The notes under the pieces were generated by a model. That model ran no database searches. It was not told the origin of the DNA and was given only the letters and a program-made list of their open reading frames with translations. A program made the position numbers and the translations under genes. From positions 1-26,882 of the forward strand of contig CAZTMO010000001.1 of the NCBI GenBank assembly GCA_964615105.1: a DNA stretch of 26,882 nt. The letters are read 5' to 3'. Source of the DNA: an uncultured Thermoleophilia bacterium (GTDB lineage Bacteria > Actinomycetota > Thermoleophilia > UBA2241). Positions 491 to 21,467 of this stretch are shown piece after piece; the first letter of the stretch is position 1; the number at the start of each line of letters is the position of its first letter.

Positions 491-503
491 GACCGCGCCT
501 GGC

Positions 504-3081: not shown

Positions 3082-3103
3082 AACGGATGCGATTCTATCA
3101 GGC

Positions 3104-3733: not shown

Positions 3734-3829
3734 ACGCTCCCTCCGCCACGATCTCGGCTCGTGCCCTCCCCGCTTCCAGATCTCCAACGAAGCACAGCGG
3801 CTGCGCGTCAGGGGCTTGCTGCGCCTGGC

Positions 3830-3864: not shown

Positions 3865-3867
3865 TGC

Positions 3868-5253
3868 ATGGCCCTCGACCTTCTCGCGATCGCACGTGAC
3901 CTTGTCGCCGTCGACACGCGCTCGAGCGTGTCCGACGCCGCCGCGGTCGCACTGCTCACGCCCCTTTGTCGCGACGTCGGGCTGGACGTCGTCACGCAAT
4001 CCGAACTGCGCGACGGCGTGAAGCAGTTCAATCTGGTGGCAACACGCCGCGAGGGCAGCGAGGCTCCGCTCTTGCTCGCCACGCACCTCGACACGGTGCC
4101 TCCCGGCGATCATGCCCTGTGGACGGTGTCGGGGGGAAGGCCGTTCGCTCTCACCGAACATGACGGGGACCTGTACGGTCTGGGCGCCGCCGACGTCAAG
4201 CTCGACTTCCTCTGCAAACTGGCAGCCCTCGACCGGTTGCGTGACGAGACGTTCAGGCGACCCGTCGTACTTGCCGGCACGTACGGCGAGGAGACTGGAC
4301 GCTATGGCGCCCATCTGCTCGTGCGCCGGCTCGAACCGCTGCCCGCGATGGCCCTGGTCGGAGAGCCGACCGACCTTCAGGCGTGCCCCTCGCACAAGGG
4401 CTATGTCGAGGTCCACGTCGCCGGGCGGAGGAGTGGCGCGACGGCATGTGACGCGTCGCCCCGTTGGCGCCTGCGCTTCTCCGGAGTGGCGGCGCACTCG
4501 TCGCAGCCCGACCGCGGCGTCTCTGCCTGCGACCTGCTTGTCGACTCTTTGCCGGGCCTCCGGCGTGCCGGTATCACGGCGGTCTACGAGGCATGGGGCG
4601 GCGAGGTGATGAACCTCGTGGCGCCGGTCGCCGAGCTCGTGGTCGGTGCCCCGGCAGCGCCGCACGTGCCGTCCGCCGTCATCTCCCCAGCCGACCACGA
4701 AGCGGCGGACTGGTCCCCGGCGCTCGTCGCGGCCCTCGAGCGGCTCCACACCGCCACGGCGGCTCTGCGCCGGCGTCTGGCCGCCTGGACCGACGACGCC
4801 TTCCGTCCTCCGTACAGCACCGTCAATAACGGCAGACTGCGACTCGCCGCCGATCATCTCGAGTACGCCTGCGACACGCGCACCCTGCCCGGCGATGCCC
4901 CACGCGAAGCGCTCGAGGACTACTTGCAGGACCTTCCCGCCCTGCGGGTGCCAAGCGTGGACCTGCGTGTGGACACGCGCTTCGCCGCCCCCCCGTTCGC
5001 CGCGCGCTCCGGCTCCGCTGTGCTTCGCGCGCTTCGGGAGACCATCGCCGATGTCGGGCTGCCGCCCACGGACGAGATCAAGAGCGGCACCACTGAGGCG
5101 ACCGTCTACGCGCAGGCGGGTATCGACACGGTCGTCTTTGGCCCCGGCCTCGCCACGGGCAACATCCACAAGCCGGACGAGCGTGTGCCCATCACGCACC
5201 TGCACGCCGCCGTGGACGTCTACGAGGGTGTCGTGCGGCGACTCTGCCTCTGA
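3868..5253 (+). CDS. M20/M25/M40 metallo-amidohydrolase (ArgE/DapE-like deacylase)
   Basis: The metal-ligand motifs appear in order: ATHLDTVPPG, LYGLGAADVK, YGEETG, LVGEPT and GNIHKPDERV. The dimerisation-domain motif GVAAHSSQP is present. This is the only plus-strand gene. Confidence 0.9.
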   Translation: MALDLLAIARDLVAVDTRSSVSDAAAVALLTPLCRDVGLDVVTQSELRDGVKQFNLVATRREGSEAPLLLATHLDTVPPGDHALWTVSGGRPFALTEHDGDLYGLGAADVKLDFLCKLAALDRLRDETFRRPVVLAGTYGEETGRYGAHLLVRRLEPLPAMALVGEPTDLQACPSHKGYVEVHVAGRRSGATACDASPRWRLRFSGVAAHSSQPDRGVSACDLLVDSLPGLRRAGITAVYEAWGGEVMNLVAPVAELVVGAPAAPHVPSAVISPADHEAADWSPALVAALERLHTATAALRRRLAAWTDDAFRPPYSTVNNGRLRLAADHLEYACDTRTLPGDAPREALEDYLQDLPALRVPSVDLRVDTRFAAPPFAARSGSAVLRALRETIADVGLPPTDEIKSGTTEATVYAQAGIDTVVFGPGLATGNIHKPDERVPITHLHAAVDVYEGVVRRLCL

Positions 5254-5265
5254 CCCCCTGGAGCT

Positions 5266-5511
5266 TCATCCGCCGCCCAACGGCGCCACGAACGTGACCA
5301 CGGCGCCGTCGTGCAGCACGTGATCGTCGCCGATCGGCTGACCGTCGAGCAACGCGATGCGCCCGACCTCAGTCGGCATGCCCAAGGCATCGACCACGGC
5401 AGACAGCGGCGCCTCGCGCCCCGCCACGTGCACCACGACCGAGCCCTCTCCGCCGGCTCCCGGCGGGAGAAAGGCGCGATGGCCGCCAAACAGCACCGCC
5501 GTCACGTGCAC
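5266..5511 (-). CDS. moaD: MoaD/ThiS-family sulfur-carrier protein (copy 1)
   Basis: GTG 5511 lies 6 nt after AGGAGG. The 81-aa ubiquitin-like protein ends VTFVAPLGGG with the C-terminal Gly-Gly. The symbol is family-level only. Confidence 0.85.
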   Translation of the reverse strand: MHVTAVLFGGHRAFLPPGAGGEGSVVVHVAGREAPLSAVVDALGMPTEVGRIALLDGQPIGDDHVLHDGAVVTFVAPLGGG

Positions 5512-5556
5512 CCGCGTCCTCCTCGTGCTGACCGCTCGCTGAAGCGCATCCGAGAC

Positions 5557-5597
5557 TGCCGCAGGCCGGCGGCGACCCTCGTCGCCGGCCTGCGGCA
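5557..5597. terminator. GC-rich hairpin (about 17-bp stem with a 3-nt bulge and 4-nt loop) just downstream of the cupin gene
   Basis: TGCCGCAGGCCG-gcg-GCGAC-cctc-GTCGC-CGGCCTGCGGCA lies 5 nt after the cupin stop. There is no U-tract on the minus strand, so it is either a U-less terminator or an mRNA-stabilising stem. Confidence 0.55.
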
Positions 5598-5602
5598 CGG
5601 GT

Positions 5603-5995
5603 TCAGGCGGGCCTTGTCGGAGGGTACTCCGGGTACGAGAACACGTACACCATACTCATCGGCTCCGCGCTGTCGTTGACCACCCCGTGGGGCACGCCCG
5701 CGGGGATCAGGACACCCTGGCCGGCCCGGTATGAGACGCACTCGTCGCCGATCGAGAGCTTCCCCTCGCCCTCCACGATGTAACACAGCTCGTCCACCTC
5801 GTGGACCATCTGGTTGGTGTTGGCGCCCGGCTGCCACGTCGAGAACCCAAGCATCGTCGCCGAGGCGCCGTTGAGCGGGCCCGAGACCAGCTCGCACACC
5901 CAACTGCCGTCCGGCAGGTCGGTCCGCTTGCCCTCGCTGACGTCGACCACCTTGACGCGCTCGGTCCAGCGCGCAGCGTCCGCGTTCTTGTCCAT
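5603..5995 (-). CDS. Cupin-domain protein (monocupin)
   Basis: 130 aa with motif 1 GANTNQMVHEVDELCYIVEGEG and motif 2 GQGVLIPAGVPHGVVN. The ATG abuts the stop of the upstream gene. Confidence 0.88.
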   Translation of the reverse strand: MDKNADAARWTERVKVVDVSEGKRTDLPDGSWVCELVSGPLNGASATMLGFSTWQPGANTNQMVHEVDELCYIVEGEGKLSIGDECVSYRAGQGVLIPAGVPHGVVNDSAEPMSMVYVFSYPEYPPTRPA

Positions 5996-6997
5996 TCAGA
6001 TCACCAGCGCTCCGTCCTTGATGAGCATGCGCCCTTCAGCCTCGAGGCTGATGTTGCGCAGACAGCCGTCCAGGTGCAGGGCGCTGTGGCTTTGACCTCC
6101 GGGGTAGCAGTGCGCGTTGTCGCCGAGGGCGAAGTGGATCGTGCCGAGCAGGCCCTTCTCGGAGGCCGAGCCGCTCGGCGACTTCGTGCTCGTGCCCATG
6201 GCGAACTCGGCGACGACGTTGGCGTTCTCGTCCGAGCCGGCGACGACCGCCTTGAGGCGCTCGGCCTCGACACCACCTGAGATCTCGACCGCGCGACCGT
6301 CCTTGATCACCCACTTGATGGGCTCGCTGAGCGACCCGAACACGCCCACGCCGAGCATGATGCCGTCAACGACGATGATCCCCTCGGTCTTGTCTTCGAC
6401 GGCGGCGTAAGCGACCTCACCCCACAGCGGGACTGGCCCCATCATCTCGCCAGCGCCCTTGATCGGGACGACCTTGAGCGCCGGACGGTCCTTGATGCAG
6501 ACCTTCACGTCCGTGCCGGCCGGGTTGGTCACGCGGACCCACTCGACGCCGTCCAGTGCCGCCATCAGCTTCTCTGTTCTGGCGACGGTCTCGAGGATGT
6601 CGTCCTCGGTGAGATCCCAGTCAGCCATGCCCTCTTCGATAGACCCGATCTTGGCGCCGTTCTTGACGCTGGCGGCCACCGGGTTGACGTGCGCGAACCG
6701 GTTGGCCCACTCCAGGTTCGTGGTGATGATGATGACGTCGGACGCCTCCATCGCCGCGGCGAGGTTCTTGGCCGGCTCCATAGGGACTTTCATCGACGCC
6801 AGAGCTGCGCTCACATGATGCGAGACGTCGGCGACGACCGGGTACGCACCGAGCGACACGGCGACCCCGGCCACCGCCTCGGCTTCGCGGCGGTGATCCT
6901 CGTCGCAGATGATGAGCACCGCGTCGCCCGCCTTGACGGTGAAGCAGGTCTCCACTACCAGCCGGGCGCCCTTGATGAGCGTCGTGTAGGACTTCAC
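5996..6997 (-). CDS. M29-fold (aminopeptidase T / AmpS-like, short type) metallohydrolase
   Basis: The start is probably GTG 6997, 6 nt after AAAGGGG. Motifs: VKAGDAVLII, VRVTNPAGTDV, PLWGEVAYA, EGIIVVDG, VAEFAMGT, SEKGLLGTIHFALGDN and LHLDG. Confidence 0.8.
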   Translation of the reverse strand: MKSYTTLIKGARLVVETCFTVKAGDAVLIICDEDHRREAEAVAGVAVSLGAYPVVADVSHHVSAALASMKVPMEPAKNLAAAMEASDVIIITTNLEWANRFAHVNPVAASVKNGAKIGSIEEGMADWDLTEDDILETVARTEKLMAALDGVEWVRVTNPAGTDVKVCIKDRPALKVVPIKGAGEMMGPVPLWGEVAYAAVEDKTEGIIVVDGIMLGVGVFGSLSEPIKWVIKDGRAVEISGGVEAERLKAVVAGSDENANVVAEFAMGTSTKSPSGSASEKGLLGTIHFALGDNAHCYPGGQSHSALHLDGCLRNISLEAEGRMLIKDGALVI

Positions 6998-7064
6998 AGC
7001 CAACCCCTTTCAGACCTTCGCTCGTGGGAGACGCGCCGCCCGCGACCCCCCTCCTCTCTCCGGC

Positions 7065-9404
7065 TCACTCCGCTGCCCGCTTCTTTCGCAGCGCCTCAAG
7101 CACTCTCTCGCGCGTCATCGGCAACTCATGCAGACGGATGCCCACGGCGTCGTAGACGGCGTTGGCGATGGCCGGCGCGGTGGGAACGAGGCCGGGCTCA
7201 CCGATACCCTTGGCCCCGAACGGTCCTTTCGTCCCGATACTCTCGACGCAGATGGCCTGCACTTCGGGCATATCGCCGATGTTGGGGATCTTGTAGTCGA
7301 GGAACCGGTCGTTGACGATCCTGCCGTTCTCGTGGACGAGCTCTTCCATGAGAGCGAAGCCGATCCCCTGCGCGACTGAGCCTTCGATCTGACCCTCGGC
7401 CATCGTCTGGTTGATCGTCGTTCCCGTCTCGTGCGCGGCCACGACCTTGAGCACCGTGACTTGACCGGTCTCCGGGTCGACCTCGACTTCGGCTGCCTGC
7501 GTGCCGAACGAGAAGTTGGGGATGTTCTTGGCGAAAGCCGTCGGGATCGTGTATCCCTCGGGCAGGCGGTCGACGAAACGACCCTTGCCCGAGATGGTGA
7601 TGCCGTGCTCGTTGACGGAGTGGTTCACGATCTCGGAGAGGTCGTGCTTCTCCGCCGCACCCTTCGCCCAGATCTTGCCGTCCTGGACAAGGACGTCCTC
7701 GGGAGCGACCTCGAGCATCTCGGCGGCGGCAGCGACGAGATTGCGCCTCGCGTCTTTCGCGGCAGCCAGGACGGCGTTGCCGTCCATGAAACTCGCGCGG
7801 CTCCCCCAGGAGCCCAGGTCATACGGCGTGAGCTCGGTGTCGTGGGAGAGGACCCTGATCGCACTGAGAGGCACGCCGAGCTCCTCGGCGGCGATCTGCG
7901 CCATCGCGGTGTGGGCACCCTGTCCCATGTCGAGAGCTGACGTGATCAGCGCCACCGTGCCTTCGTCGGAGAGCTTGACGAACGCCTCGGCCGAGTTGTA
8001 GCCGTAGAAGCGACCGCCGCCGCCGGTGTGGACCATGTTGGCCAAGCCGACACCACGCAGCGGCGTCCTGCCCTCAGGAGCTCTCTTCTCCGCCCATCCG
8101 ATGCCGTCGGCCGCCGTCTGCATACACTCCGTCATGGCGCAGCCGCAGACCTCGGCGCCTGTGTGCGTGGTCTGCATGGGCTCGTTGGCGTTCTTCATGC
8201 GCAACTCGAGCGGGTCCAGACCCATGCTCTCGGCGAGCTCGTCGATCTGGACCTCGGTCGCGAACGCTACCTGGGGGTTGCCGAAGCCGCGGAACGCCGT
8301 GCCCATCTGCTTGTTGGTGTAGACCAGCTCGCCGTGAAAGCGCACGTTAGGGACGTTGTAGAGCGTGCCGAACATCATGCTCGAGAAATTGACGGTGGCC
8401 GGTCCCTTGTCGTGGTACGCGCCCGCATCGCCGATGAGCGTGAGATCTCGCACGAGGATGCGCCCGTCTTTGGTCCCTCCGGTCTTGAGATGCAGCTTGT
8501 ACGGGTAGCGCGTCTTGCTGGTGGTGAACTCCTCGCTGCGGGTATTGACGATGCGCACCGCACGGCCGGTGATCCGCGAAAGGATCGCGGCGATGGGCAG
8601 CTTCATGTCCATGACCAGCCTGGATCCGAACCCGCCGCCCATGGATGAGTTGATCACCCGCACGTGGCTGAGCGGGACGTCGAGCACGCGGGCGATCTCC
8701 TGACGCTGCGTGTGTGGCGCCTGCGTCGTGGTCCAGATCGTCACGCGGTCGTCGACGTCCCACTTGGCGACGCAGTTGGAGGTCTCGAGACAGGTGTGCG
8801 CGACCTGGTGGGTGACATACGTGCCCTCCACCACGTGGTCGCATTCCTCGAAGGCCTTGTCGGGATCGCCAAAGAGGCGATCGACGCTCCACGTGGCGTT
8901 GCTCTCCTTGTCCTCGTGAACGAGGGGTGCGTCCGGCTTCATGGCCTCGTCGACGTCGAAGACGGCCGGCAGCGGCTCGTAGTCCACCACGATGAGCGAG
9001 AGCGCCTCCTCGGCCGTGTCCTCGTCGATCGCGGCTACGGCGGCCACTTCATCGCCAACGTAGCGCACCTTGTCGGTGCAGAGGATGTGCTTGTCGGCCA
9101 GGAACTGATAGAAGCTGAACTTGGTGTCGGGAACGTCGTCCGCCGTGATGACGGCGCGCACTCCCTTGAGGCGCCTCGCCGCCGCCGTGTCGATGGACCG
9201 GATCCTCGCATGAGGATGGGGACTGCGCAGGATCTTGCCGATGAGCATCCCCGGCATGTGATGGTCGCCGGTGTACTTCGCCTCGCCGCAGACCTTGGGG
9301 ATCGCGTCGATACGCGGCAGGCGCTGGCCGATGATCGTCATCTCTCTCTCGACGACCTCGGTCTTCACGTCTGTCTTCACGTCGGTCTCCACGTCGGATC
9401 TCAT
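7065..9404 (-). CDS. Xanthine dehydrogenase-family molybdopterin-binding large subunit (CoxL/XdhA-like)
   Basis: Start refined to ATG 9404, an ATGA overlap with the small-subunit stop. Motifs: RIDAIPKVCGEAKYTGD, GKILRSPHPHARI, MGGGFGSR, AFRGFGNPQ, DMGQGAHT, GSWGSR, EGQIEGSVAQGIG and GPFGAKGIGEP. Confidence 0.95.
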   Translation of the reverse strand: MRSDVETDVKTDVKTEVVEREMTIIGQRLPRIDAIPKVCGEAKYTGDHHMPGMLIGKILRSPHPHARIRSIDTAAARRLKGVRAVITADDVPDTKFSFYQFLADKHILCTDKVRYVGDEVAAVAAIDEDTAEEALSLIVVDYEPLPAVFDVDEAMKPDAPLVHEDKESNATWSVDRLFGDPDKAFEECDHVVEGTYVTHQVAHTCLETSNCVAKWDVDDRVTIWTTTQAPHTQRQEIARVLDVPLSHVRVINSSMGGGFGSRLVMDMKLPIAAILSRITGRAVRIVNTRSEEFTTSKTRYPYKLHLKTGGTKDGRILVRDLTLIGDAGAYHDKGPATVNFSSMMFGTLYNVPNVRFHGELVYTNKQMGTAFRGFGNPQVAFATEVQIDELAESMGLDPLELRMKNANEPMQTTHTGAEVCGCAMTECMQTAADGIGWAEKRAPEGRTPLRGVGLANMVHTGGGGRFYGYNSAEAFVKLSDEGTVALITSALDMGQGAHTAMAQIAAEELGVPLSAIRVLSHDTELTPYDLGSWGSRASFMDGNAVLAAAKDARRNLVAAAAEMLEVAPEDVLVQDGKIWAKGAAEKHDLSEIVNHSVNEHGITISGKGRFVDRLPEGYTIPTAFAKNIPNFSFGTQAAEVEVDPETGQVTVLKVVAAHETGTTINQTMAEGQIEGSVAQGIGFALMEELVHENGRIVNDRFLDYKIPNIGDMPEVQAICVESIGTKGPFGAKGIGEPGLVPTAPAIANAVYDAVGIRLHELPMTRERVLEALRKKRAAE
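9361..9396. repeat. Three-copy 12-bp tandem repeat in the 5' end of the molybdoenzyme large-subunit gene
   Basis: GTCTTCACGTCT / GTCTTCACGTCG / GTCTCCACGTCG, which encodes DVET-DVKT-DVKT on the minus strand. Confidence 0.8.
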
Positions 9405-9886
9405 CGTGACGTCACCTCCTCGCGAAGGTGGTCTCCCGCGGCCTTGACGGCCTCGATGATCTTCACGTAGCCGGTGCACCGGCAGAGGTTGCCCCGCAGC
9501 CCTTCGAGAATCTGTTCCCGGCTGGGATCGGGATTGCGATCGAGCAAGGCCTTCGCCGACATCACCATGCCGGGGGTACAGAAACCGCACTGGATGGCGC
9601 CGTGCTCGACGAAGGCACGCTGTACAGGGTCGAGCGAGCCCCCGCCGGCCAGACCTTCGATCGTCGTGACCTCGCGACCGTCGGCCTCGTGAGCAAGCAT
9701 GAGGCAGGAGTTGACCGGCTGACCGTCGAGCAGCACCGTGCAGGCTCCACACTCGCCCTGGTTACAGCCGTTCTTGGTACCTGTCAAGCCGATGTCTTCG
9801 CGGATGATCTCGAGGAGGGTGCGATGGGTGTCTACGAACAGGTCGTACTCGTCCCCGTTGACCGTTATGTGCAGCTCTCGCTTCAC
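9401..9886 (-). CDS. 2x[2Fe-2S] small subunit of a XDH-family molybdoenzyme (CoxS-like)
   Basis: [28 protein letters not shown] and GNLCRCTGY. The GTG start overlaps the FAD-subunit stop (GTGA). Confidence 0.96.
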
Positions 9887-10764
9887 CCTCGTCCTCCGTT
9901 CGTGACCCAGCCCTGCGCCGCTGTGAGGACGCGCCGCGACATGACCTCCACCAGCACCCGGCGGTACTCCGCCGAGGCGCGGATATCGTCGATGGGGCGT
10001 GACTCCTCGACCGCTTTGGCGGCCGCCGCCGCGATCACGACCTCGTCCAGCTCTCTACCGATCAGCGACGCCTCGGCGGCGCGCGCCCGCATGGGTGTGG
10101 GGGCGACGGCGCCCAGAGCGAGGCGAGCCTCGCGTACGACGACCGACCCCGGCTCGAAGGCGGCGAACAACGCCACGCCGACCGTACAGCAGTCCATGGC
10201 CGAGCGGAACGTCTTCAGATATGTGGCGAAGCTGTCCTGGGGCACGGCCGGCACGCGGACTGCCTTCAGCAGCTCGCCGCACCGCAGAACGGTCTGCCCG
10301 GGCCCCGTGAAGAAGTCCTCGAGCGGGACGACGCGTTCGTCGCTGCCATCGGTGAGAACGGCCTTGGCATCCAGGGCGATCAGGATCGCCGCCATGTCGG
10401 CTGACGGTGCGGCATTGCAGAGGTTCCCCCCGATGGTCGCCCGGGTGCGCACTTGCACCGAGCCGATCCAGGAGGCGGCCCGTGCGATCGCAGGGAAGCG
10501 CTCCATGACCTCAGGTGAATGCTCGATCACGCCGAGCGGCGTGACCGCTCCGATGGCGACGCCGCCTTGGGCGTCCGCCTCGATGAAGTTGAGGCCGGGC
10601 ACGTCACGAAGGCTCACGACCACGTCGGGACGCAGCCCGGCCGCCCTCACCTGTACGAGGACGTCTGTGCCTCCGGCCAAGGCCAGTGCGGAGCCGTTCG
10701 AGCCGGCCAGCACGTCGCAGGCCTCCTTGAGCGAACTCGGACGCGCGTAGTCGAACGCTCTCAT
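9883..10764 (-). CDS. FAD-binding medium subunit of a XDH-family molybdoenzyme (CoxM-like)
   Basis: Start refined to ATG 10764 (MRAFDYARPSSL). Motifs: LAGGTDVL, IGSVQVRTRATIGGNLCNAAPSAD, ALGAVAPTP and IDDIRASAEYR. Confidence 0.95.
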   Translation of the reverse strand: MRAFDYARPSSLKEACDVLAGSNGSALALAGGTDVLVQVRAAGLRPDVVVSLRDVPGLNFIEADAQGGVAIGAVTPLGVIEHSPEVMERFPAIARAASWIGSVQVRTRATIGGNLCNAAPSADMAAILIALDAKAVLTDGSDERVVPLEDFFTGPGQTVLRCGELLKAVRVPAVPQDSFATYLKTFRSAMDCCTVGVALFAAFEPGSVVVREARLALGAVAPTPMRARAAEASLIGRELDEVVIAAAAAKAVEESRPIDDIRASAEYRRVLVEVMSRRVLTAAQGWVTNGGRG

Positions 10765-10789: not shown

Positions 10790-12016
10790 TCATGCCGACC
10801 GGGTCGCCACGCCGGCGCGCGTGTTCTCGATCGGCGCTTCGACCATCGTGATCGCCTCGCGGGCGCACAGGAAGTAGCAGACGGCGCAGGAGTAGCAGTC
10901 CTTCGGCTTGACGAGGACAGCCTTCTTGTCGCGGATCTCGATGCACTCGCAGTGACCCGGCGCGGCGCAGAGACCACACCCGTTGCACTTCTCGAGGTCG
11001 ATCTCGGGGAGCATCGGGATGTAGTGCACCTCGCCCGGGGTGACGATGTACTTGAGAGCGATTCCGCGCATGTCCGCCAACGTCTCGTAGCCATTCTCGT
11101 CCATGAACTTGCGCATGCCGGGCTCGATCTTGGCGAACGCCTTGTAGCCCTTCAGGTAGAGGAGCGAGCAGTACGTGAGCACGGTGGCGCCGTACATGAT
11201 CATCTCCACGGAGTGGCGCCAGTTCATGAGACCGCCACCGCCGGCCAGCGGCAACGTCGGACAGATCGTGCGCATCTGCGCGATATGGCGGTAGGCGAGC
11301 GGCCGGATCCACGGGCCGCAGAGCCCGGCGAAGGACTGGTTGTCGGTCGACGGGTACATCGGCGTGCCGCCGTTCTTGATGTTGAGCGGCGGCAACGACT
11401 GCGGGCAGTTGATGGCCGACACCGCAGCCGCGCCGTTCTTCTCCACCGAACGCGCCACCATCATGGTGTTGGCCTCTGGGGTCATCTTCGGCATCACGGG
11501 GATCTTCACCGCATCGGCCACGGCCTTGCAGACCTGACCGGCCAGTGCCGGGTCCTTGCCTAGGGTGGCGCCGAGCTCGGGCTCTTCGTCGACACCCATC
11601 TGCTTGGCCATGAGCCCCAGGTTCGGACAGCTCATGTTGAGCTCGAGCATGTCGGCGCCGGCCTCTTCGAGCATGCGCGCCAACTTGGCCCAGCCCTCGA
11701 GGTCCTCACCAGGGCCCATCATGTTGGCGATGATCTTGAGCTCGGTCTGCTCCTTGCACTGCTGGATGAGCTCCTGCGTGTCCTCCACGCGCATACGCTC
11801 GCCCGACGGTGAGTAGAAGGCGCCTTCCTTCTCGATGATGTGATAGGGACGCGCGTACAACGGGACCTTGAGAAAGGTGAGCTTCGTGCTGACGGCCGAA
11901 GCGCCGTTCTCCTCAGCCCACTTGATCTTCTCGACCTTGTTCGTCAACTCGGACGAGGCGATGATGAATGGATTCTTAAGCTTGAGGCCTGCGAAGTCGA
12001 CTGACAGGTCAGCCAT
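10790..12016 (-). CDS. preA: PreA-like FMN TIM-barrel oxidoreductase (dihydroorotate/dihydropyrimidine dehydrogenase family) with C-terminal 2x[4Fe-4S] domain
   Basis: Start ATG 12016 after GAAGGGGGAG. Motifs: LSVDFAGLKLKNPFIIAS, LELNMSCPN (active-site loop Cys), PKMTP, SAINC, GLCGPWIRPLA, LAGGGG, CNGCGLC...HC and CYSCAVCYFLC. The symbol indicates similarity, not proven function. Confidence 0.85.
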   Translation of the reverse strand: MADLSVDFAGLKLKNPFIIASSELTNKVEKIKWAEENGASAVSTKLTFLKVPLYARPYHIIEKEGAFYSPSGERMRVEDTQELIQQCKEQTELKIIANMMGPGEDLEGWAKLARMLEEAGADMLELNMSCPNLGLMAKQMGVDEEPELGATLGKDPALAGQVCKAVADAVKIPVMPKMTPEANTMMVARSVEKNGAAAVSAINCPQSLPPLNIKNGGTPMYPSTDNQSFAGLCGPWIRPLAYRHIAQMRTICPTLPLAGGGGLMNWRHSVEMIMYGATVLTYCSLLYLKGYKAFAKIEPGMRKFMDENGYETLADMRGIALKYIVTPGEVHYIPMLPEIDLEKCNGCGLCAAPGHCECIEIRDKKAVLVKPKDCYSCAVCYFLCAREAITMVEAPIENTRAGVATRSA

Positions 12017-13661
12017 CGAGCTCCCCCTTCTGCACGTCGGTTTCCTCTGCGGTCTCTGCAAACCCGGACACCGCCACGGTCTCGCGGGTCGCCTCAAGGC
12101 GCGCGGCGATCTCCAGGTAGCGGCCCTCGACCGCCGCCTGAGCGTCGTCGCGCGCTTCGTCTGTCCAGTAGCCCAGCTCGTAGCCGAACCACGGCTTTCT
12201 CAGGCTCAGCGGCGGCAGGCCCTCGGCCTCCCAGCGCGCCAGCGCCCGTTCCATGAACTCCTTGCGCGGCAGCGACGTCGGCGGGTAGTCCCACTTGCGC
12301 GTCGCGTCGATGAGGATCGCCGACGTCCCCGAGGGCTGCGGGAAGCGCTGTTCGTCGACGTGCGCCTCTGGCGGCGCCGAGGACGGATCGAGGATGCTGG
12401 CCTTGCCGGTGACGATGTGCGTGTCCAGATGTGGGCGCATCCGGTAAGCCATAGCCCAGTTGACGGCATCGGCGTCATTGGGATCGATGTCCTCGTCGAC
12501 GGCGACGATCATCTTGCCGATCGTCGGGTCGAGCGCGACGGCGGCGTGGAGCGCCTGCCAGGGCTGCGACGGGTGTACCTTCTTGAGCTGGATGACCATC
12601 AACCCGTAGCTGCCGGTCATCTCGTGGAGCTGGACGTCGAGGATCCCCGGGATGTTCGCCGACTTCAACCTGTTGAGGTACACGGCGTCATAGGCGAGCT
12701 TGCGGATGAGGCTGCTCTCCGACGGCGGGAACTGGCTCAGGAAGGCCTGGTAGACCGGCGTCTTGCGGTGCATGATCCCCGTCACGTGGAACACCGGATT
12801 GGCGACGCGCGTGCCCATGTAGCCCGTGTACTCGCCGAAGGGCGCCTCCTGCTCGCGGTACGTCGGGTCGACGTATCCCTCGACGACGATCTCGGCGCTC
12901 GCCGGGACCTCGAGATCGACCGTCTGGCACTTGACCAGCTCGATCGGCTCGCCGGCGATGCCGCCGGCAACGGCGAACTCGTCGACGCCGTACGGGATCT
13001 TGGCGACGCTGCAGAGGCCGACGGCCGGCGTGCAGCCGAGGATGATGGCCGCCTCGAGCACCTTGCCGTTACGGCGCGCGCTCTGCAGGTGCAGGCCGAT
13101 GTGTTGGCTCTGATGAGCCATCATGCCGGCCTTTCCGCCCCCCTTCACCATCACCCGGTACGTGCCCACGTTGCGGTCGCCAGTCTCGGGATCCTTGGTC
13201 ACCCAGAAGGGCGAGGTGAAGTACGGCGCGGGGTCGAAGCCCGGCGTGGAGATGGGATGCGGGAACTCGAGAATGCCGTCGTGCTCAAGCAGCCCGTCGC
13301 CGACGTGGATCTCCTCCATGACGGGACCATCGTCGACGAGCACGGGAGGGATGTAGCCTCGGTGGACCGCCGCCCAGCGATCACTGATCTCGTCGGGGCC
13401 ACAGCCGAGCGCCTTCGCGTATACCGCCCGGTTGGCCCCGAGGACACCGACAGCGACGGGGCCGGGGAACGTGCGTCCGTTGACGTCTCTCACGTCCTCG
13501 AACACGAATGCCGTGCGCTGCTCGGCCGGCAGGCCGCGGAACTGCAGCCTGACCAGCGGCATGAGCTCGGTGTCCTTGCAGATCGGCGTGCGCACCCGCC
13601 GGAGCAGGTCTGCGGCCTCCAACGCCGCGATGTACTCGCGAAAATCCTTGTAATAGCTCAC
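12009..13661 (-). CDS. ubiD: UbiD-family prFMN-dependent (de)carboxylase, about 550 aa
   Basis: Start refined to GTG 13661 (GTGA overlap, MSYYKDFREYIAALE). Motifs: RNVGTYR, EIVVEG, EAPFGEYTGY, IVAVDEDIDP and ILIDATR. The symbol is family-level only. Confidence 0.93.
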   Translation of the reverse strand: MSYYKDFREYIAALEAADLLRRVRTPICKDTELMPLVRLQFRGLPAEQRTAFVFEDVRDVNGRTFPGPVAVGVLGANRAVYAKALGCGPDEISDRWAAVHRGYIPPVLVDDGPVMEEIHVGDGLLEHDGILEFPHPISTPGFDPAPYFTSPFWVTKDPETGDRNVGTYRVMVKGGGKAGMMAHQSQHIGLHLQSARRNGKVLEAAIILGCTPAVGLCSVAKIPYGVDEFAVAGGIAGEPIELVKCQTVDLEVPASAEIVVEGYVDPTYREQEAPFGEYTGYMGTRVANPVFHVTGIMHRKTPVYQAFLSQFPPSESSLIRKLAYDAVYLNRLKSANIPGILDVQLHEMTGSYGLMVIQLKKVHPSQPWQALHAAVALDPTIGKMIVAVDEDIDPNDADAVNWAMAYRMRPHLDTHIVTGKASILDPSSAPPEAHVDEQRFPQPSGTSAILIDATRKWDYPPTSLPRKEFMERALARWEAEGLPPLSLRKPWFGYELGYWTDEARDDAQAAVEGRYLEIAARLEATRETVAVSGFAETAEETDVQKGELDG

Positions 13662-15550
13662 AATCCTGCTCCATCCAGTAGGTTCGCGACGATCGGATCG
13701 CTCGTGACCCATTCGAGTCCGAGCCGCTCCAGGGTCTCGGGTGTTGGCATGCTCGTCACCGGGTCGTATCCGCTCGCGGCGTACAGCTCCCGGCGCATGA
13801 GGTCGAAGTCCACGACCTGCCCGGCGATCGGGCCCTCGGGGACCGCCTCCTCGAGGAGCCTCGCCGGGATCGTGTCGTCCTCGGCGCGCAGGCCTTCACG
13901 GACGTTGATGACGCGCTCCAGGGCGTTGATGCGCTCGCCGGCCAGGTACATGTCGGCCGCCGAGAACTCGTGCCCCGTCGCCGTGCCGATGAGCTCGGCC
14001 AGTGTGCCGTCCTGCATGCCGATGGTCAGGAACGCGCACGTGCCTGCGGAGTCGGCCGCCGCGGCTCGCCGGTTGCGGCTGCCGAGCGCGATCGGCGCCT
14101 TGCCCGAGTCCGCGAAGCGGTCGATGTCCGGGTTCGTCAGTTCGGCGGTGACCGTGTAGCCGCCGGCGTGATGGCAGCCGCCCCGGTTGCCGCACCCGTA
14201 GACGAGCGCCATCCCCTTCGCCCCACGAGGATCGTAACCGCCCACCTCCATGCCTTTGGCGTGCATCGCAAAGGCCTCGGAACCCTGGCCGATGCGTTCG
14301 GCCATCGCTTTGCTACCCAGCGCGATCTCAGCGCCGAAGCCGCGTCTGAAGGCGGCGTCCTTGACCAGCTCGATCATCGCCTCCGCGTTGCCGAAGCGCA
14401 GGTCGATGCCCCCTGTGTCTTCCTTGGTGATCAACCCGCGTTCGAAGCACTCCATGGCGAACGAGATGGTGACGCCGACCGAGATGGTGTCGATGCCGTA
14501 GAGATCGCAGAGCTGGTCGGCCGCGATGACCGCGCCCAGATCGTAGACGCCGCACGAGCTCCCCAGCGAGTAGACGGTCTCGTACTCCGGTCCTTCAGAG
14601 GTCGCCCCCGCGTAGGGACCGTCCCGCACGACCGTGACCTTGCTGCACCGCGAGGGACAAGGATCGCCGCACGGAGCGTCCTTAACGAGGTACTGCTCGC
14701 GCAGCATGTCGCCGAGCAGCCCACGACCCTTGTCGACCGGCGCCGACCGCTGCCAGTTGTCGGCCGGCATGATGCCCGAATTGAGCGTCACGGCGACAGT
14801 GCTGACCGAGCCGTGAAGCTTCAGCGGACCAGAGGTGAAGGGGTGCTCACGAAGCTCCTTGACGATCTTCTTGACCGCCGCTTTGAACCCGTCGGGATCG
14901 CCGACGGGCGCGGCCTCTGCGCCCGCGCGCACGACCATGGCCTTGACGTTCTTTGAGCCCATGACAGCGCCGGCGCCGCCGCGGCCGAGCGCACGACGCT
15001 CGTTGAGCAGGCAGGCGTAAGGAACGAGGTTCTCTCCGCCCGGGCCGATGCAGGTGATCGCGACTTGGCCGCGCGGCAGTTCGTCGCGGATGTACTCCTG
15101 CGCCGAAAGCGTATCGAGGCCCCAGAGGTGGCCGGCCGGATGCAGCTTGGCCTTGCCGCCAGTGATCTCGACGTACACCGGCTCGTCGCTACGCCCGGTG
15201 AGGACGATGACGTCGAAGCCGGAACGCTTGATCACCGGTCCCAGATCGCCCCCGGTGATGCAGAAGAGATAGAGCCCGGTCTGAGGCGACTTCGTCGCCA
15301 GGGCGGCCCGAGCAGAACCCGGGGCCGTCGTTCCGCTCAGGGGTCCGGAGGCGAAGATGAGCGGGTTCTCCGGACTCAGCGCGTCGGTCCCTGCGGGCAG
15401 CATGTCGAACAGGTAGCGGGCGGCAAGGCCGCGGCCGCCGACGAAGCTTCTCGCGGCGGCCGCATCGAGATCCTCGACACGCTGCTCGCCGCTGCCGACG
15501 TCGACGACGAGAACCTTGCCCCAGAATCCGCCCACAGGGAACTGCCCCAT
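13658..15550 (-). CDS. aor: Aldehyde:ferredoxin oxidoreductase (AOR/WOR) family tungstoenzyme catalytic subunit, paralog B
   Basis: ATG 15550 lies 6 nt after AAGGAG (alternative GTG 15556). Motifs: GGRGLAA, KSPQTG, GRGGAGAVMGSKNVKA, EGPEYETV, CDLYGIDTIS, KGMEVGGYDPR, RGGCHH and DSAGTCAF. Confidence 0.95.
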   Translation of the reverse strand: MGQFPVGGFWGKVLVVDVGSGEQRVEDLDAAAARSFVGGRGLAARYLFDMLPAGTDALSPENPLIFASGPLSGTTAPGSARAALATKSPQTGLYLFCITGGDLGPVIKRSGFDVIVLTGRSDEPVYVEITGGKAKLHPAGHLWGLDTLSAQEYIRDELPRGQVAITCIGPGGENLVPYACLLNERRALGRGGAGAVMGSKNVKAMVVRAGAEAAPVGDPDGFKAAVKKIVKELREHPFTSGPLKLHGSVSTVAVTLNSGIMPADNWQRSAPVDKGRGLLGDMLREQYLVKDAPCGDPCPSRCSKVTVVRDGPYAGATSEGPEYETVYSLGSSCGVYDLGAVIAADQLCDLYGIDTISVGVTISFAMECFERGLITKEDTGGIDLRFGNAEAMIELVKDAAFRRGFGAEIALGSKAMAERIGQGSEAFAMHAKGMEVGGYDPRGAKGMALVYGCGNRGGCHHAGGYTVTAELTNPDIDRFADSGKAPIALGSRNRRAAAADSAGTCAFLTIGMQDGTLAELIGTATGHEFSAADMYLAGERINALERVINVREGLRAEDDTIPARLLEEAVPEGPIAGQVVDFDLMRRELYAASGYDPVTSMPTPETLERLGLEWVTSDPIVANLLDGAGL

Positions 15551-15552
15551 GC

Positions 15553-16701
15553 TCACTCCTTTGCCAGCGCCTTGCGATACAGGCGCTCGAGGTCGGCAGG
15601 CGACGCGTTACGCACGTTCAGCCTGTAGTTGACGACTTTCGTGCACTGCTCGACCAGTACGGGGATCTCTTCGTCGGTGACGACAGCCGGGTCCAGGGTG
15701 GTCGGGAAGCCCACGGCCTCCATGAGACTCCAGAGGCGATAGAGCAGCTCCTCGGCGAGCTCGGCATCGTCGCCCTGCTCGCCGAGCAACCTCGCGATCG
15801 GGGCGATCTTGGCGCTGGCCACCGGCAGGTTGAACTCCATGGCGTACGGCAGCATGATGCCGGTGGCCAGCCCATGAGACATGTGGAGCCGTCCCAGTGG
15901 CTGCGACAGAACGTGGGCGAGACCCGGCAGCGACGTGCCCGTCGCCATGTTCGCGATCGTGCTGGCCTCGAGCATGCGCTGCTTGGCGCCGAGATCGCCG
16001 GTCAACGCCGCTCTGGGCAGACTGTCGAAGATCGTCGCCGCGGACGTCGCGGCCAAGCCGTCCGAGAAGTCGGTCGCGCCGACCGACCAGATCGCGTCCA
16101 GCGCATGCGCCAGGGCGTCCATCCCGGCAACCAGCGCCGGCCACGCCGGAAGGCTCTCCATGAGTCCGCCGTCCAGGATCGCGACGGTGGGGTACGTGCG
16201 TTCGTCGAGGATCGACATCTTGAAGCCGCGCGCCTCGTCGGTGAGGATCGTCACCTTCGAGACCTCGGTCCCCGAGCCCGCGGTAGTGGGGACGGCGATC
16301 ACCGGGAACGGCGCCTTGGCGGCCTTGTTGAAGCCCTCGTAGTCGGTGAGCACGCCGCCGTTGGCGGCCACGAGGGCGATTCCCTTACCGGCGCACATCG
16401 GGCTTCCGCCCCCCAGAGCTATGACCAGGTCGCAACCCTCCGCCTTGAAGACCTCGACGCCGGCAGCGACGGTGCGCACGCCGGGGTCTTCCTCGACTTG
16501 GTCAAACAGGACATAGGGCAATTCCGCCTCGTCCAGGAGGCCGGTGACGCGGCTCGTCACGCCCGCCGCCGACAGACCGGCGTCAGTACAGATGAACGCC
16601 TTGCTGCCCCCGGAGGCGCGCACCTGCGCCGCGACGGCCCCGATGCTGCCCAGGCCGTGCACGATCCGAGTAGGCATGAAGAAGAGCTTCGGCTGCGACA
16701 T
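15553..16701 (-). CDS. Iron-containing (group III) alcohol dehydrogenase
   Basis: The start is probably ATG 16701 after GGGGGA. Motifs: FFMPTRIVHG, LGGGSPM, VPTTAGSGTEVS, GMDALAHALD and GLAHVLSQ...SHG. Confidence 0.93.
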   Translation of the reverse strand: MSQPKLFFMPTRIVHGLGSIGAVAAQVRASGGSKAFICTDAGLSAAGVTSRVTGLLDEAELPYVLFDQVEEDPGVRTVAAGVEVFKAEGCDLVIALGGGSPMCAGKGIALVAANGGVLTDYEGFNKAAKAPFPVIAVPTTAGSGTEVSKVTILTDEARGFKMSILDERTYPTVAILDGGLMESLPAWPALVAGMDALAHALDAIWSVGATDFSDGLAATSAATIFDSLPRAALTGDLGAKQRMLEASTIANMATGTSLPGLAHVLSQPLGRLHMSHGLATGIMLPYAMEFNLPVASAKIAPIARLLGEQGDDAELAEELLYRLWSLMEAVGFPTTLDPAVVTDEEIPVLVEQCTKVVNYRLNVRNASPADLERLYRKALAKE

Positions 16702-16731
16702 CGATCCCCCAGTCATCAGACTCTTGTCTTA

Positions 16732-16759
16732 AGCATAGTCTATCGTCCAGTATTATGAA
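16732..16759 (-). promoter_or_regulatory. Candidate internal sigma70 promoter (TTCATA-N16-TATGCT) for the adh-to-cupin genes
   Basis: An AT-rich patch overlaps the gntR stop, with -35-like TTCATA at 16754-16759 and -10 TATGCT at 16732-16737. The predicted start is near 16725, about 25 nt upstream of the adh ATG. Confidence 0.5.
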
Positions 16760-17715
16760 TCGGACAAGTCGACCTCGAGGACATCGTCTGCTCCGGCCTG
16801 CCCGCGGACGTCCTCAGGCTCCAAGCTGACGAGCGCAGTACCGTCACGAACGGCTCCGCGCGCGGCCGCTTCACCAGTCAGCGCGTCCCAGAACGTCCCA
16901 CCGTTCTCGTGGCTCCTCGTGAGAAATCCGCGATGCTTGTACCGGTCGGAGCGGTAGTAGACCTCCGCCAGATCGACCACGCGGGCGTCCGACGTGTAGA
17001 CGGTGAGCGTCAGTTTGAGAAGCGAGGTCAGCAGATCCACTTCGAGCAACCTCGCCTGCTCGTCGTCGGCGGCCACCGCCTCGAACATCTGCGAAGCCCA
17101 ATCGACCTTGAAGCCGGTCCGCTTCTCGATCAGCACGATGAGGGGTTCCTTCTCAAGTTCGCTCAGCGAGAGACACGCGCCCACCTCGTACGGGACGTAG
17201 TTGGTCAAGACGGCCAGCGGCCGGTCGCCCACGAGCCGCACACGTTGCACGTAGAACAGGTCCGCGTCTTCGCCGATCGCGAACGTCTCAGCGAGGTCCG
17301 GCGTTGGTTTCACGAGCCTGAACTCGACCACGCGGACGCGCGTGTCGGGCCCGATGTGGATGAGATCCTCCAAGCTCCCGCTGATGTGCGGCGTCGCGTC
17401 GTCGGCAAGCTCCTCCGAGACGAACGAGCCCTTCCCCTTGACTCGCCGGATCAGGCCCTGGTCGTCGAGCATCTGGAGAGCCTGGCGCACCACCACACGG
17501 CTCACGCCGAAACGCTTCGTGAGCTCCGCCTCGGACGGCAACTGGCGCCCAGGCGCGAGCTTGCCCGCGATGATTTGCTCTTTGAGGTTCCGCATGACCT
17601 GGTAGTAGAGGGGGATCCCATTGCGACGACTTGGCCTCCCCCTGCGGGTCGTCGACAGCCGGCCGTCGCCGGCGGCAGCTCCCGGCCCGCCCTTGGAGCC
17701 CCACTGTCCACTCAT
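16753..17715 (-). CDS. GntR-family transcriptional regulator, HutC subfamily (wHTH plus UTRA)
   Basis: ATG 17715 lies 7 nt after AGGAG. The HTH reads IPLYYQV...LPSEAELTKRFGVSRVVVRQALQMLDDQGLIRRVKGKGSFV. The UTRA region includes VQRVRLVGDRPLAVLTNYVP and YYRSDRY. Confidence 0.95.
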   Translation of the reverse strand: MSGQWGSKGGPGAAAGDGRLSTTRRGRPSRRNGIPLYYQVMRNLKEQIIAGKLAPGRQLPSEAELTKRFGVSRVVVRQALQMLDDQGLIRRVKGKGSFVSEELADDATPHISGSLEDLIHIGPDTRVRVVEFRLVKPTPDLAETFAIGEDADLFYVQRVRLVGDRPLAVLTNYVPYEVGACLSLSELEKEPLIVLIEKRTGFKVDWASQMFEAVAADDEQARLLEVDLLTSLLKLTLTVYTSDARVVDLAEVYYRSDRYKHRGFLTRSHENGGTFWDALTGEAAARGAVRDGTALVSLEPEDVRGQAGADDVLEVDLSDS

Positions 17716-17742
17716 GTCCGTACTCCTGCCCCCATGAGGGCG

Positions 17743-18027
17743 TCAGCCCCCGCCCAGCGGCACGATCACCCGCAGCTCCGCCTCGTCGCGCACGACGGCG
17801 TCGGCGGCGACGCGCTCGCCGTCCAGCGTCAGAAAGGTCCTGCCTTCCTGCGGGACGGCGAGCACGTCCAGCACGTCGTCCACCGTGCTGCCGCGCTTCA
17901 ACTCCACGACCGTCCGACCCCGGTCTTCAGGCGGCAGCAGGCTCGCGTGATTGCCGAACAGCACGACCCTGACGCGAACGGTGTCAGCACCGGTCGGCTC
18001 CTGCGCCTGGCGGAGATGCTCGGCCAT
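17743..18027 (-). CDS. moaD: MoaD/ThiS-family sulfur-carrier protein (copy 2)
   Basis: 94 aa ending RVIVPLGGG, immediately downstream of AOR paralog A. The symbol is family-level only. Confidence 0.88.
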   Translation of the reverse strand: MAEHLRQAQEPTGADTVRVRVVLFGNHASLLPPEDRGRTVVELKRGSTVDDVLDVLAVPQEGRTFLTLDGERVAADAVVRDEAELRVIVPLGGG

Positions 18028-18033
18028 CGAACG

Positions 18034-20246: not shown

Positions 20247-20262
20247 GTGTGGTCTCTCCCTG

Positions 20263-21432: not shown

Positions 21433-21467
21433 ACCGAACACCTTCCTTCGTTAAGTGGGTGACGGGC

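Follow-up and report, generated by a model that had tools for sequence, protein, structure and literature searches.

What reaction does a PreA-like flavoprotein catalyse, and from where does it draw its electrons, when no PreT partner is encoded beside it? This question is raised by a gene on the minus strand of a 26,882-nucleotide stretch of DNA (contig CAZTMO010000001.1 of assembly GCA_964615105.1; hereafter the window, taken at its full length) from an uncultured Thermoleophilia bacterium, which codes for a PreA-like stand-alone Fe-S flavoprotein of 408 residues. An earlier reading made from the letters alone, here called the sequence-only reading, had described it as a PreA-like reductase without PreT, possibly supplied by ferredoxin and acting on a 2-pyridone. 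On the evidence of sequence comparison, the protein is a member of a separate clade of Fe-S flavoproteins of the dihydropyrimidine dehydrogenase (DPD) and dihydroorotate dehydrogenase (DHOD) type and is no orthologue of PreA. As to its role, we tentatively favour a ferredoxin-driven ring reductase acting on a pyridine-carboxylate intermediate in an O2-independent catabolism of vitamin B6; which donor supplies the electrons, which way the reaction runs, what the substrate is and in what sequence the steps follow are what we infer from the genomic context.

The protein and its clade

The FMN barrel, the NMSCPN loop and the two 4Fe-4S motifs, which had been read from the letters, were all confirmed. 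The barrel is recognised by the Pfam family DHO_dh, and its residues K45, K177 and G261-G262 are all invariant in the family alignment. The loop, which aligns with that of DPD, is found in 96 of 107 homologues; a 40-sequence alignment shows no variation at N127, C130 and P131, nor at K45, R74, N98 and the eight cysteines of the cluster motifs. The first motif, CxxCxxCx5C, had been noted as atypical, and it represents a conserved family trait and no accident, since the 5,3 spacing of the cysteines recurs in 105 of the 107 full-length homologues; residues 339-391, for their part, give a weak match with the Pfam Fer4 dicluster family. The AlphaFold2 (AF2) model is of good quality (pLDDT 90.2, pTM 0.89) and shows a DPD-like fold, domains IV-V of pig DPD being the top Foldseek matches (query-normalised TM-score, TMq, of about 0.8; E 2.5e-26) and class-1 DHODs the next ones (TMq of about 0.65). 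The sole low-confidence part of the model is the loop right after NMSCPN (residues ~131-150, window 11567-11623), where an insertion of 8-10 residues is found relative to PreA and DPD; its counterpart in DPD is the mobile active-site lid. The gene itself opens with an ATG at 12016, directly preceded by a ribosome-binding site (GGGGGAG), and closes with a TGA at 10792-10790, while its start codon and the stop of the UbiD gene overlap by 8 nt.

Membership in the neighbouring families was assessed with profile scores and with an alignment of about 120 full-length relatives plus E. coli PreA (MAFFT), the homologues having been gathered by searching 1.84 billion representative proteins exhaustively with HMMER. 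PreA is the best NCBIfam match and DPD the best PDB match, and E. coli PreA aligns over the full length with 30% identity. The score against the PreA equivalog (NF006183) is 225.6 bits, below the cut-off of 335, and the DHOD profiles also remain below theirs (NF005574, 154.5 versus 269; TIGR01037, 146.5 versus 270). Moreover, five co-varying signature positions split the clade of the window protein from PreA and DPD (Table 1). Arg74 and Asn98 are present in 44 and 46, respectively, of the 51 Cx5C sequences, and the Cx3C sequences, of the PreA/DPD type, have Ser98 in 33 of 43 and Arg74 in 6 of 43. The pyrimidine-binding signature fails in the window protein, which has Ser69 for Asn609, Cys204 for Thr737 and Asn132 for His/Gln, besides Asn98, and keeps the equivalents of DPD Asn668 and Asn736. 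For the loop around Asn609, the placements given by phmmer, the profile hidden Markov model (HMM) and MAFFT differ by as many as 7 residues, and use was made only of the large MAFFT alignment and of the lack of a conserved Asn. Since these features co-vary across the clade, the protein belongs to a separate clade and is no PreA without its partner. HMM cut-offs, partner subunit and substrate signature all set the protein outside both PreA and class-1 DHOD; thus, the stand-alone DPD-like Fe-S flavoprotein of the sequence-only reading was retained, but not as a PreA minus PreT.

Table 1. Signature positions separating the window clade from PreA/DPD-type proteins (window numbering)
Position	Window clade	PreA/DPD-type
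Substrate loop	Arg74	Asn at window position 69 (DPD Asn609)
Position 98	Asn	Ser
Active-site loop	N-x-x-C-P-N	S-C-P-His/Gln
Positions 203-204	Asn-Cys	Asn-Thr (DPD 736-737)
First cluster motif	Cx5C	Cx3C

With PreA (E. coli PreT/PreA) and domains IV-V of mammalian DPD the protein shares a common build, an FMN TIM barrel with its Cys loop followed by a C-terminal 2x[4Fe-4S] part, and presumably the same chemistry, in which a hydride and a Cys proton are added across a ring C=C. It differs from them in Arg74, Asn98, SCPN, Cys204, the Cx5C spacing, the 8-10 residue insertion and the genomic context. The likeness to class 1A/1B DHODs (L. lactis PyrDA; PyrDB with PyrK) lies in the barrel fold, the N-x-S-C-P-N motif and, probably, a ring substrate bearing a carboxylate on the hydride-accepting carbon, whereas the window protein has its own Fe-S domain, no PyrK, a Ser for Asn67 and an invariant Arg in the carboxylate-binding loop. 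In class-1 DHODs the loop equivalent to that of Arg74 presumably binds the carboxylate of orotate through backbone amides, and the SCPN motif we take to be of the DHOD type. If these residue roles hold, the invariant Arg74 together with a DHOD-type SCPN suggests a carboxylated ring substrate.

Electron supply and gene neighbourhood

In none of about 30 loci, drawn from several phyla, does a gene for an NAD(P)H-FAD partner lie close by. With E. coli PreT as the query, tblastn drew a blank both in the window and in 27 related loci taken with their 10-kb flanks, no PreT was called in three further loci (L029-L031), and the gene map of the window holds neither a PreT, GltD or PyrK gene nor space for one of the size of PreT or of PyrK (FAD/2Fe-2S). 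In E. coli, preT and preA overlap. The statement that the window lacks such a gene was therefore borne out, and both of the AORs (aldehyde:ferredoxin oxidoreductases) that had been read in it are clear family members (Table 2).

A supply by ferredoxin is the most economical reading, because the gene shares a single cluster, read in one direction, with the genes for two AORs and for a polyferredoxin, the latter a likely electron carrier, in an anaerobic-digester organism. The two tungsten AORs would reduce ferredoxin via the adjacent polyferredoxin, and reduced ferredoxin would give single electrons to both 4Fe-4S clusters and these, in turn, to FMN. The flavin would then hand a hydride to one carbon of the ring and Cys130 a proton to the carbon next to it, as happens when uracil or orotate is reduced, the substrate being most likely a heteroaromatic monocarboxylate released by the translationally coupled UbiD. 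The proposal that the AORs feed the reductase through ferredoxin is thus kept as a probable arrangement; the closed internal redox loop that went with it is not, since in the B6 reading two AOR steps would yield four electrons and the reductase takes two.

The window has a GC content of ~67%, and the minus strand carries almost all of its genes. The cluster covers ~21 kb, from 26334 down to ~5266, and Table 2 gives its genes in that order, from the four ABC transporter genes through UbiD, the PreA-like gene and the Mo enzyme (FAD, 2Fe-2S, Mo) to a small ubiquitin-fold open reading frame (ORF), with a divergent M20 deacylase and then UbiX beyond its end. Several junctions overlap by 4-8 nt, and a promoter and terminator scan of the window gave no signal above chance. 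Between the UbiX and M20 genes, a 282-aa ORF on the minus strand (3104-3952) contains a hydrophobic segment, and the left end of the window (1-2390) is housekeeping, with a partial TlyA-like rRNA methyltransferase and DXS. Two ORFs are of the ThiS/MoaD-like ubiquitin fold, one after AOR2 and one at the cluster end; pairs of an AOR followed by a ThiS-like gene recur in several phyla (also in loci L020, L022, L029 and L033) and may have to do with the handling of the tungsten-pterin cofactor.

Table 2. Features of the window, from the right end of the cluster downwards, with the parts of the PreA-like protein listed below its gene
Feature	Position	Strand	Basis
BMP-type ABC transporter, four genes	21468..26334	-	NCBIfam NF047927-NF047930
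ABC binding protein	25234..26334	-	NF047927, 371.6 bits (cut-off 400)
ABC ATPase	23552..25237	-	NF047930, 676.5 bits (cut-off 670, passes)
ABC permease 2	22396..23574	-	NF047929, 399.0 bits (cut-off 400)
ABC permease 1	21468..22442	-	NF047928, 434.6 bits (cut-off 465)
Class-V aminotransferase, closest to PPAT	20263..21441	-	NCBIfam NF046070, PDB 2z9u
Polyferredoxin, 139 aa, upstream of AOR2	19836..20255	-	Several Fer4 families; resembles Fe-S N-terminus of PadI
AOR2, aldehyde:ferredoxin oxidoreductase	18034..19878	-	AFOR_N 243 bits, AFOR_C 404.1 bits
ThiS/MoaD-like small protein	17743..18027	-	Pfam ThiS, 22.9 bits
GntR/UTRA (HutC-type) regulator	16753..17715	-	Pfam GntR and UTRA
Iron-containing alcohol dehydrogenase (Fe-ADH)	15553..16716	-	Pfam Fe-ADH and ADH_Fe_C; 4-nt overlap with AOR1 start
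AOR1, tungsten AOR family	13658..15556	-	AFOR_N 234 bits, AFOR_C 405.6 bits
UbiD-family prFMN decarboxylase	12009..13712	-	Pfam UbiD N, core and C domains
PreA-like stand-alone Fe-S flavoprotein, 408 aa	10790..12016	-	ORF with start and stop codons, Pfam, NCBIfam, AF2/Foldseek
FMN-binding class-1 DHOD/DPD-type TIM barrel, residues 4-305	11102..12007	-	Pfam PF01180 (DHO_dh), 89.8 bits
Arg74 in substrate loop	11795..11797	-	Invariant in 40 sequences; DPD/DHOD have Asn609/Asn67 region there
Active-site loop N127-M-S-C130-P-N132, catalytic Cys	11621..11638	-	Aligned to pig DPD N668-S670-C671
Two 4Fe-4S motifs, C344xxC347xxC350x5C356 and C374xxC377xxC380x3C384	10865..10987	-	Aligns with DPD domain V
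Xanthine-dehydrogenase-family Mo enzyme	7065..10764	-	Pfam and NCBIfam
Mo enzyme, FAD subunit	9883..10764	-	
Mo enzyme, 2Fe-2S subunit	9401..9886	-	
Mo enzyme, Mo subunit	7065..9404	-	Best PDB match 4-hydroxybenzoyl-CoA reductase alpha (1rm6), 488 bits
NicX/M29-like metalloenzyme, candidate ring-opening hydrolase	5996..7003	-	Pfam Peptidase_M29, 41.9 bits
Cupin_2 protein	5603..5995	-	Pfam Cupin_2, 62.3 bits
Small ubiquitin-fold (ThiS/Mut7-C-like) ORF, weak call	5266..5598	-	Pfam Ub-Mut7C, 20.3 bits, below cut-off
M20 ArgE/DapE-like deacylase, divergent	3868..5253	+	Pfam Peptidase_M20; NCBIfam acetylornithine deacetylase, 184 bits, below cut-off
UbiX flavin prenyltransferase (prFMN for UbiD)	2482..3159	-	TIGR00421, 176 bits (cut-off 108.9)

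The PreA-like gene was found, with strong synteny, in 19 genome loci at 56-98% identity, all of them from uncultured Thermoleophilia or Actinomycetes metagenome-assembled genomes (MAGs), and near-identical DNA is present in anaerobic-digester, biogas, sludge and some marine metagenomes; in RNA-labelled libraries from such sites, short low-depth contigs are spread over the whole cluster. Relatives of 58-66% identity, from one Anaerolineales MAG and other uncultured metagenome lineages, keep a core composed of GntR/UTRA, UbiX, PreA-like, UbiD, AOR and ThiS-like genes, which continues with an HdrD/LutAB-like CCG Fe-S protein, a NicX-like gene, a cupin, a ferredoxin and a second AOR. UbiD adjoins the PreA-like gene in nearly all relatives of at least 58% identity (Thermoleophilia, the Anaerolineales MAG and other lineages), and in L020 and L022 UbiX stands directly upstream, giving the order UbiX, PreA-like, UbiD in a cluster headed by a GntR/UTRA-type regulator. 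A NicX/M29-like gene beside the PreA-like/UbiD pair is conserved across phyla, its pairing with a cupin being seen also in L014, L009, L020, L022 and L030, and the M20 deacylase beside the cluster is conserved in Thermoleophilia.

The slot between the PreA-like and the NicX-like gene is variable. In the window, as in most Thermoleophilia, the Mo trio occupies it, and in L009 and L010 it is empty; in L015 (11119-15218), L020 (12755-17170) and L022 (12673-16912) it is filled by an AOR of 650-680 aa and a CCG Fe-S protein, LutB/LutA-like or HdrD-like, of ~660-680 aa, with a ThiS-like gene between the two in L020 and L022. A BamB-like dearomatising reductase was considered for the 670-aa AOR of this slot and rejected, the score being 401 bits to true AORs versus 214 to BamB. 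The Mo hydroxylase, absent from these five loci, is no obligatory partner of the PreA-like protein, and for this reason the substrate need not be a pyridone: of the earlier 2-pyridone proposal, a pyridine-type N-heteroaromatic compound is what the context continues to favour.

Some further observations concern the Mo module. In L014, the nearest MAG, the interval between the Mo subunit and the NicX-like gene (14889-18245) contains YqeC, a MocA-like cytidylyltransferase, XdhC and a 332-aa ORF, and Mo-carrying Thermoleophilia relatives show a gap of ~2.4-3.4 kb there. In the window the YqeC, MocA and XdhC maturation genes are missing, and the genes for the Mo subunit and the NicX-like protein are direct neighbours (7003-7065). 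Compared with L014, the PreA-like protein is 98% and the NicX-like one 95% identical, and the Mo subunits only 77-79%; this mosaic conservation suggests that the Mo module was swapped by recombination. Where Thermoleophilia loci lack the Mo enzyme, the next gene after the cupin is one of the alanine dehydrogenase/PNT family (L009, 12858-13970), which may handle an amino product of ring opening.

A putative route for vitamin B6

Two parts of the cluster point towards vitamin B6. The four transporter genes all match NCBIfam equivalogs for a "putative B6 ABC transporter", the ATPase above its cut-off and permease 2 falling 1 bit short of its own; the ligand of the binding protein was also sought among its PDB relatives, whose matches were weak and uninformative. 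The aminotransferase scores 344.6 bits against the pyridoxamine--pyruvate transaminase (PPAT) family NF046070 (cut-off 600), the next family reaching 160, and aligns end to end with PPAT of M. loti (2z9u; 274.5 bits, 37% identity over 380 aa). Its homologues are labelled pyridoxamine--pyruvate transaminase in JGI, and the Schiff-base Lys is conserved, together with a Glu which in PPAT reportedly excludes the phosphate of pyridoxal phosphate. On account of the transporter and transaminase signals, the substrate of the reductase is likely 3-hydroxy-2-methylpyridine-5-carboxylate (MHPC) or MHPC in a hydroxylated form. The unrelated contig L033 (369-7421) looks to hold an upper module of its own for a substrate resembling a vitamin: a PPAT-like aminotransferase (44% identical), a ferredoxin and an AOR succeed one another in the order seen in the window, and after them come a full ECF transporter (S component, two ATPases, T component) and a ThiS-like gene.

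The gene order of the window is also colinear with the steps of the aerobic B6 pathway I; B6 catabolism is known only from aerobes, where the ring is opened by an oxygenase (reviewed in PMC3538738). Literature searches retrieved no paper on this cluster, on this clade or on anaerobic B6 degradation. In the route that is proposed, the substrate would be taken up via the B6-type ABC transporter, pyridoxamine would be converted to pyridoxal by the PPAT-like transaminase, and pyridoxal to 4-pyridoxate by AOR2 with ferredoxin. Oxidation of the 5-hydroxymethyl group by Fe-ADH and of the resulting 5-formyl group by AOR1 would give 3-hydroxy-2-methylpyridine-4,5-dicarboxylate, which UbiD, with prenylated FMN (prFMN) from UbiX, would decarboxylate to MHPC. 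The PreA-like enzyme would then take the place of the O2-dependent MHPC oxygenase, reducing MHPC or a hydroxylated pyridone form of it; the keto tautomer of MHPC offers a carbonyl-CH=C(COO-) unit as found in orotate. The product could be a cyclic imine or an aldehyde. Since either of these could be oxidised by the Mo enzyme (aldehyde-oxidase/xanthine-dehydrogenase family) or by an AOR, Mo trio and AOR module might alternate in one slot, an AOR with an HdrD-like protein filling the role of the Mo enzyme in other lineages. Opening of the ring and its further trimming would fall to the NicX/M29-like metalloenzyme and the cupin. In lineages that carry the Mo enzyme, C6 may instead be hydroxylated first by this enzyme and the resulting pyridone be taken up by the reductase, as in nicotinate fermentation (PMC3511419); it is to this variant that the pyridone of the sequence-only reading corresponds.

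For the NicX/M29-like protein, a true NicX dioxygenase was tried as an assignment and not kept: homologues carry PF26233 NicX, a single-sequence PDB search gave no match, and a profile search gave only weak matches, marginal to PepS and NicX (7cn3) alike (E 1e-3 to 6e-3); the protein may be a hydrolase or a dioxygenase.

For the aerobic pathway I of Mesorhizobium loti and Pseudomonas MA-1, the cluster has likely counterparts in its PPAT-like transaminase, its B6-type ABC transporter and its GntR regulator, and its steps, as proposed, would follow the same order down to the decarboxylation that gives MHPC. What would differ are the catalysts: tungsten AORs in place of pyridoxal dehydrogenase plus lactonase and of FHMPC dehydrogenase, Fe-ADH in place of 4-pyridoxate dehydrogenase, and UbiD/UbiX in place of the class-II-aldolase-type decarboxylase. 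The gene map of the window shows no flavin monooxygenase and no alpha/beta-hydrolase gene that could correspond to MHPC oxygenase and 2-(acetamidomethylene)succinate hydrolase; in their place stand the PreA-like, Mo enzyme, NicX/M29-like, cupin and M20 genes. For the decarboxylation, the best PDB match of the window UbiD is HmfF, the 2,5-furandicarboxylate decarboxylase (6h6x; 196 bits versus 133 for UbiD), and both would strip one carboxylate from a heteroaromatic dicarboxylate. Unlike the HmfF/HmfG system (a UbiD/UbiX pair), the window has no furoyl-CoA ligase and carries nitrogen-handling genes, and HmfF has no known DPD-like reductase partner.

A precedent for the reduction exists in Eubacterium barkeri, where 6-hydroxynicotinate is converted to THON in a ferredoxin-linked ring reduction of a hydroxypyridine carboxylate (PMC3511419). 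The likeness to this 6-hydroxynicotinate reductase (EC 1.3.7.1) lies in the proposed role, that is, in ferredoxin-dependent reduction of a hydroxypyridine carboxylate and in a place after a Mo hydroxylase and before hydrolytic ring opening (PMC3511419). The two differ in that the Mo hydroxylase is optional in the family of the window protein, and in the substrate, probably a B6-derived methyl-hydroxypyridine carboxylate.

A more far-reaching version would see in the protein an ATP-independent flavin/Fe-S dearomatising reductase which holds MHPC in an orotate-like pose, is driven by AOR-made low-potential ferredoxin and is the key to a complete O2-free mineralisation of B6. Each classical O2- or NAD-dependent enzyme would have been swapped for an AOR, a prFMN-UbiD, the DPD-like reductase or a Mo/W oxidoreductase plus M29-like hydrolase; pyridoxamine, pyridoxal and 4-pyridoxate would be the B6 substrates, and the pathway would occur in digester Thermoleophilia, its lower part also in distant uncultured lineages, including the Anaerolineales MAG. 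With all of its elements taken together, we regard this version as unlikely.

Several points weigh against a reductase in B6 catabolism. The B6 labels are themselves context-based ("putative"), and three of the four transporter scores, like that of PPAT, lie below the curated cut-offs. Loci from outside the Thermoleophilia showed neither the transaminase nor Fe-ADH nor the B6 transporter at up to 10 kb from the core, and B6 may for that reason be the business only of an additional upper pathway of the Thermoleophilia. Being a fully aromatic 3-hydroxypyridine, MHPC is far harder to reduce than uracil, orotate or a pyridone. Function is not uniform within the Cx5C/Arg74 clade, since members of 41-47% identity lie in unrelated contexts: L029 (P0113, 47%) beside the genes of a glycyl-radical enzyme and of the activase that belongs to it, in the company of a TRAP-type transporter, Fe-ADH and AOR, and L026/L027 (P0120, 41%) in a cluster with fumarase, citryl-CoA-synthetase-like and lyase genes and a C_GCAxxG_C_C protein. 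To these are to be added the alignment of the Arg74 loop, ambiguous between methods, the weak RNA support for expression, in which low-depth contigs might reflect DNA carry-over, and the preT negative, which covers the window and 27 related loci with their 10-kb flanks and would allow for a preT elsewhere in the genome. For the clade as a whole, function is putative.

Alternative explanations and meaning for the family

The alternative that survives best would keep the same ferredoxin-linked C=C reduction of the UbiD product and change the compound degraded, to another heteroaromatic methylamine, alcohol, aldehyde or acid. HMF, furfural or furandicarboxylate (leading to 2-furoate), 5-hydroxymethyl-, formyl- or carboxy-uracil (leading to uracil), the thiamine pyrimidine HMP and nicotinate-type pyridine carboxylates are candidates. 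It is somewhat unlikely. In its favour, HmfF is the closest match of the window UbiD, the known substrates of the enzyme family are pyrimidines, and no B6-specific gene lies within 10 kb of the core in other phyla. Two relatives also speak for it. In L031 (P0063, 65% identity), a sigma-54 activator lies upstream, and downstream an NMT1-type ABC transporter and an isochorismatase/nicotinamidase-family hydrolase, shortly after which the contig ends, stand where the window has UbiD. In L024 (P0106, 48%), the PreA-like gene has an AOR on one side and a DUF6282 protein on the other, among a Mo hydroxylase, a ComA-like gene, two UbiD genes, a TctABC transporter, ICL/PEP-mutase, PrpD and aconitase, an array that recalls the lower nicotinate pathway and may belong to a pyridine di- or tricarboxylate pathway. 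Against such a change of substrate, transporter and PPAT-like transaminase are two independent signals that both point to B6, the gene order matches the B6 pathway step by step, and the uracil-binding residues of DPD, Asn609 and Thr737, are not conserved; a furan route, moreover, would leave the M29-like gene, the M20 amidohydrolase-type gene and the transaminase unexplained.

If the enzyme worked instead in the oxidative direction, in the manner of DHOD, its substrate would be a reduced heterocycle, to be desaturated or aromatised, and the electrons would leave via its clusters to ferredoxin or to the neighbouring Mo enzyme. The reversibility of DHOD-family enzymes, the DHOD-type SCPN and the position of the gene for the FAD subunit of the Mo enzyme, next downstream, would fit this direction. 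The transfer of electrons from a C-C single bond to low-potential ferredoxin is, however, thermodynamically uphill, and the cluster needs an electron sink, since its other steps are all oxidative and make reduced carriers. The Mo enzyme is absent from many loci of the family, and the one apparent 703-aa PreA-like/FAD-subunit fusion, in L025 (P0102), which would have pointed to a physical complex, was discarded as an assembly artefact, because most cluster genes on that contig are split or frameshifted. An oxidative role is considered improbable.

Very improbable is an ordinary PreA or DHOD acting on uracil, thymine or orotate with PreT or PyrK encoded elsewhere. It would agree with the best NCBIfam and PDB matches and the database labels, with the conservation of the catalytic Cys, N127 and N203, and with a preT search limited to the window and related loci. 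It is contradicted by the scores, which fall short of the PreA and of all DHOD cut-offs, by S69, N98, N132, C204 and Cx5C where PreA and DPD have their own signature, and by the translational coupling of the gene inside a catabolic cluster with no tie to pyrimidine metabolism. Furthermore, preT is adjacent in none of the ~30 loci, whereas in E. coli the two genes overlap.

Least probable of all is an accessory redox protein for UbiD/UbiX, for instance an O2-independent oxidative maturase turning reduced prFMN into the active iminium form, an idea that draws on the order UbiX, PreA-like, UbiD in L020 and L022, on the overlap with the UbiD stop in the window and on the life of these organisms without O2, prFMN maturation in vitro being a process that uses O2, but that is without precedent and leaves unaccounted for the strict conservation of the catalytic Cys and the substrate-binding Asn of turnover enzymes, the 65% relative with no adjacent UbiD and the fact that, to our knowledge, most UbiD genes in anaerobes have no such neighbour.

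A ferredoxin-driven reductase for a B6-derived pyridine carboxylate thus continues to be the reading that we tentatively prefer. The architecture of the protein is familiar; what is new is the logic of its partners, the signature of its clade and, likely, its place in an O2-free B6 pathway. One consequence concerns annotation, since public databases name the homologues "PreA", "dihydroorotate dehydrogenase" or "tRNA-dihydrouridine synthase", and hundreds of entries so labelled are probably misnamed, which matters where preTA is used as a marker of bacterial fluoropyrimidine inactivation. If the reading is true, the clade would bring to the DPD/DHOD family a new class of substrates and an input of electrons from ferredoxin in place of PreT or PyrK, and would represent, beside 6-hydroxynicotinate reductase, a second and presumably non-homologous solution to the ferredoxin-driven reduction of hydroxypyridine rings. 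It would also show how digesters, sediments and other anoxic habitats recycle N-heterocycles that stem from cofactors.

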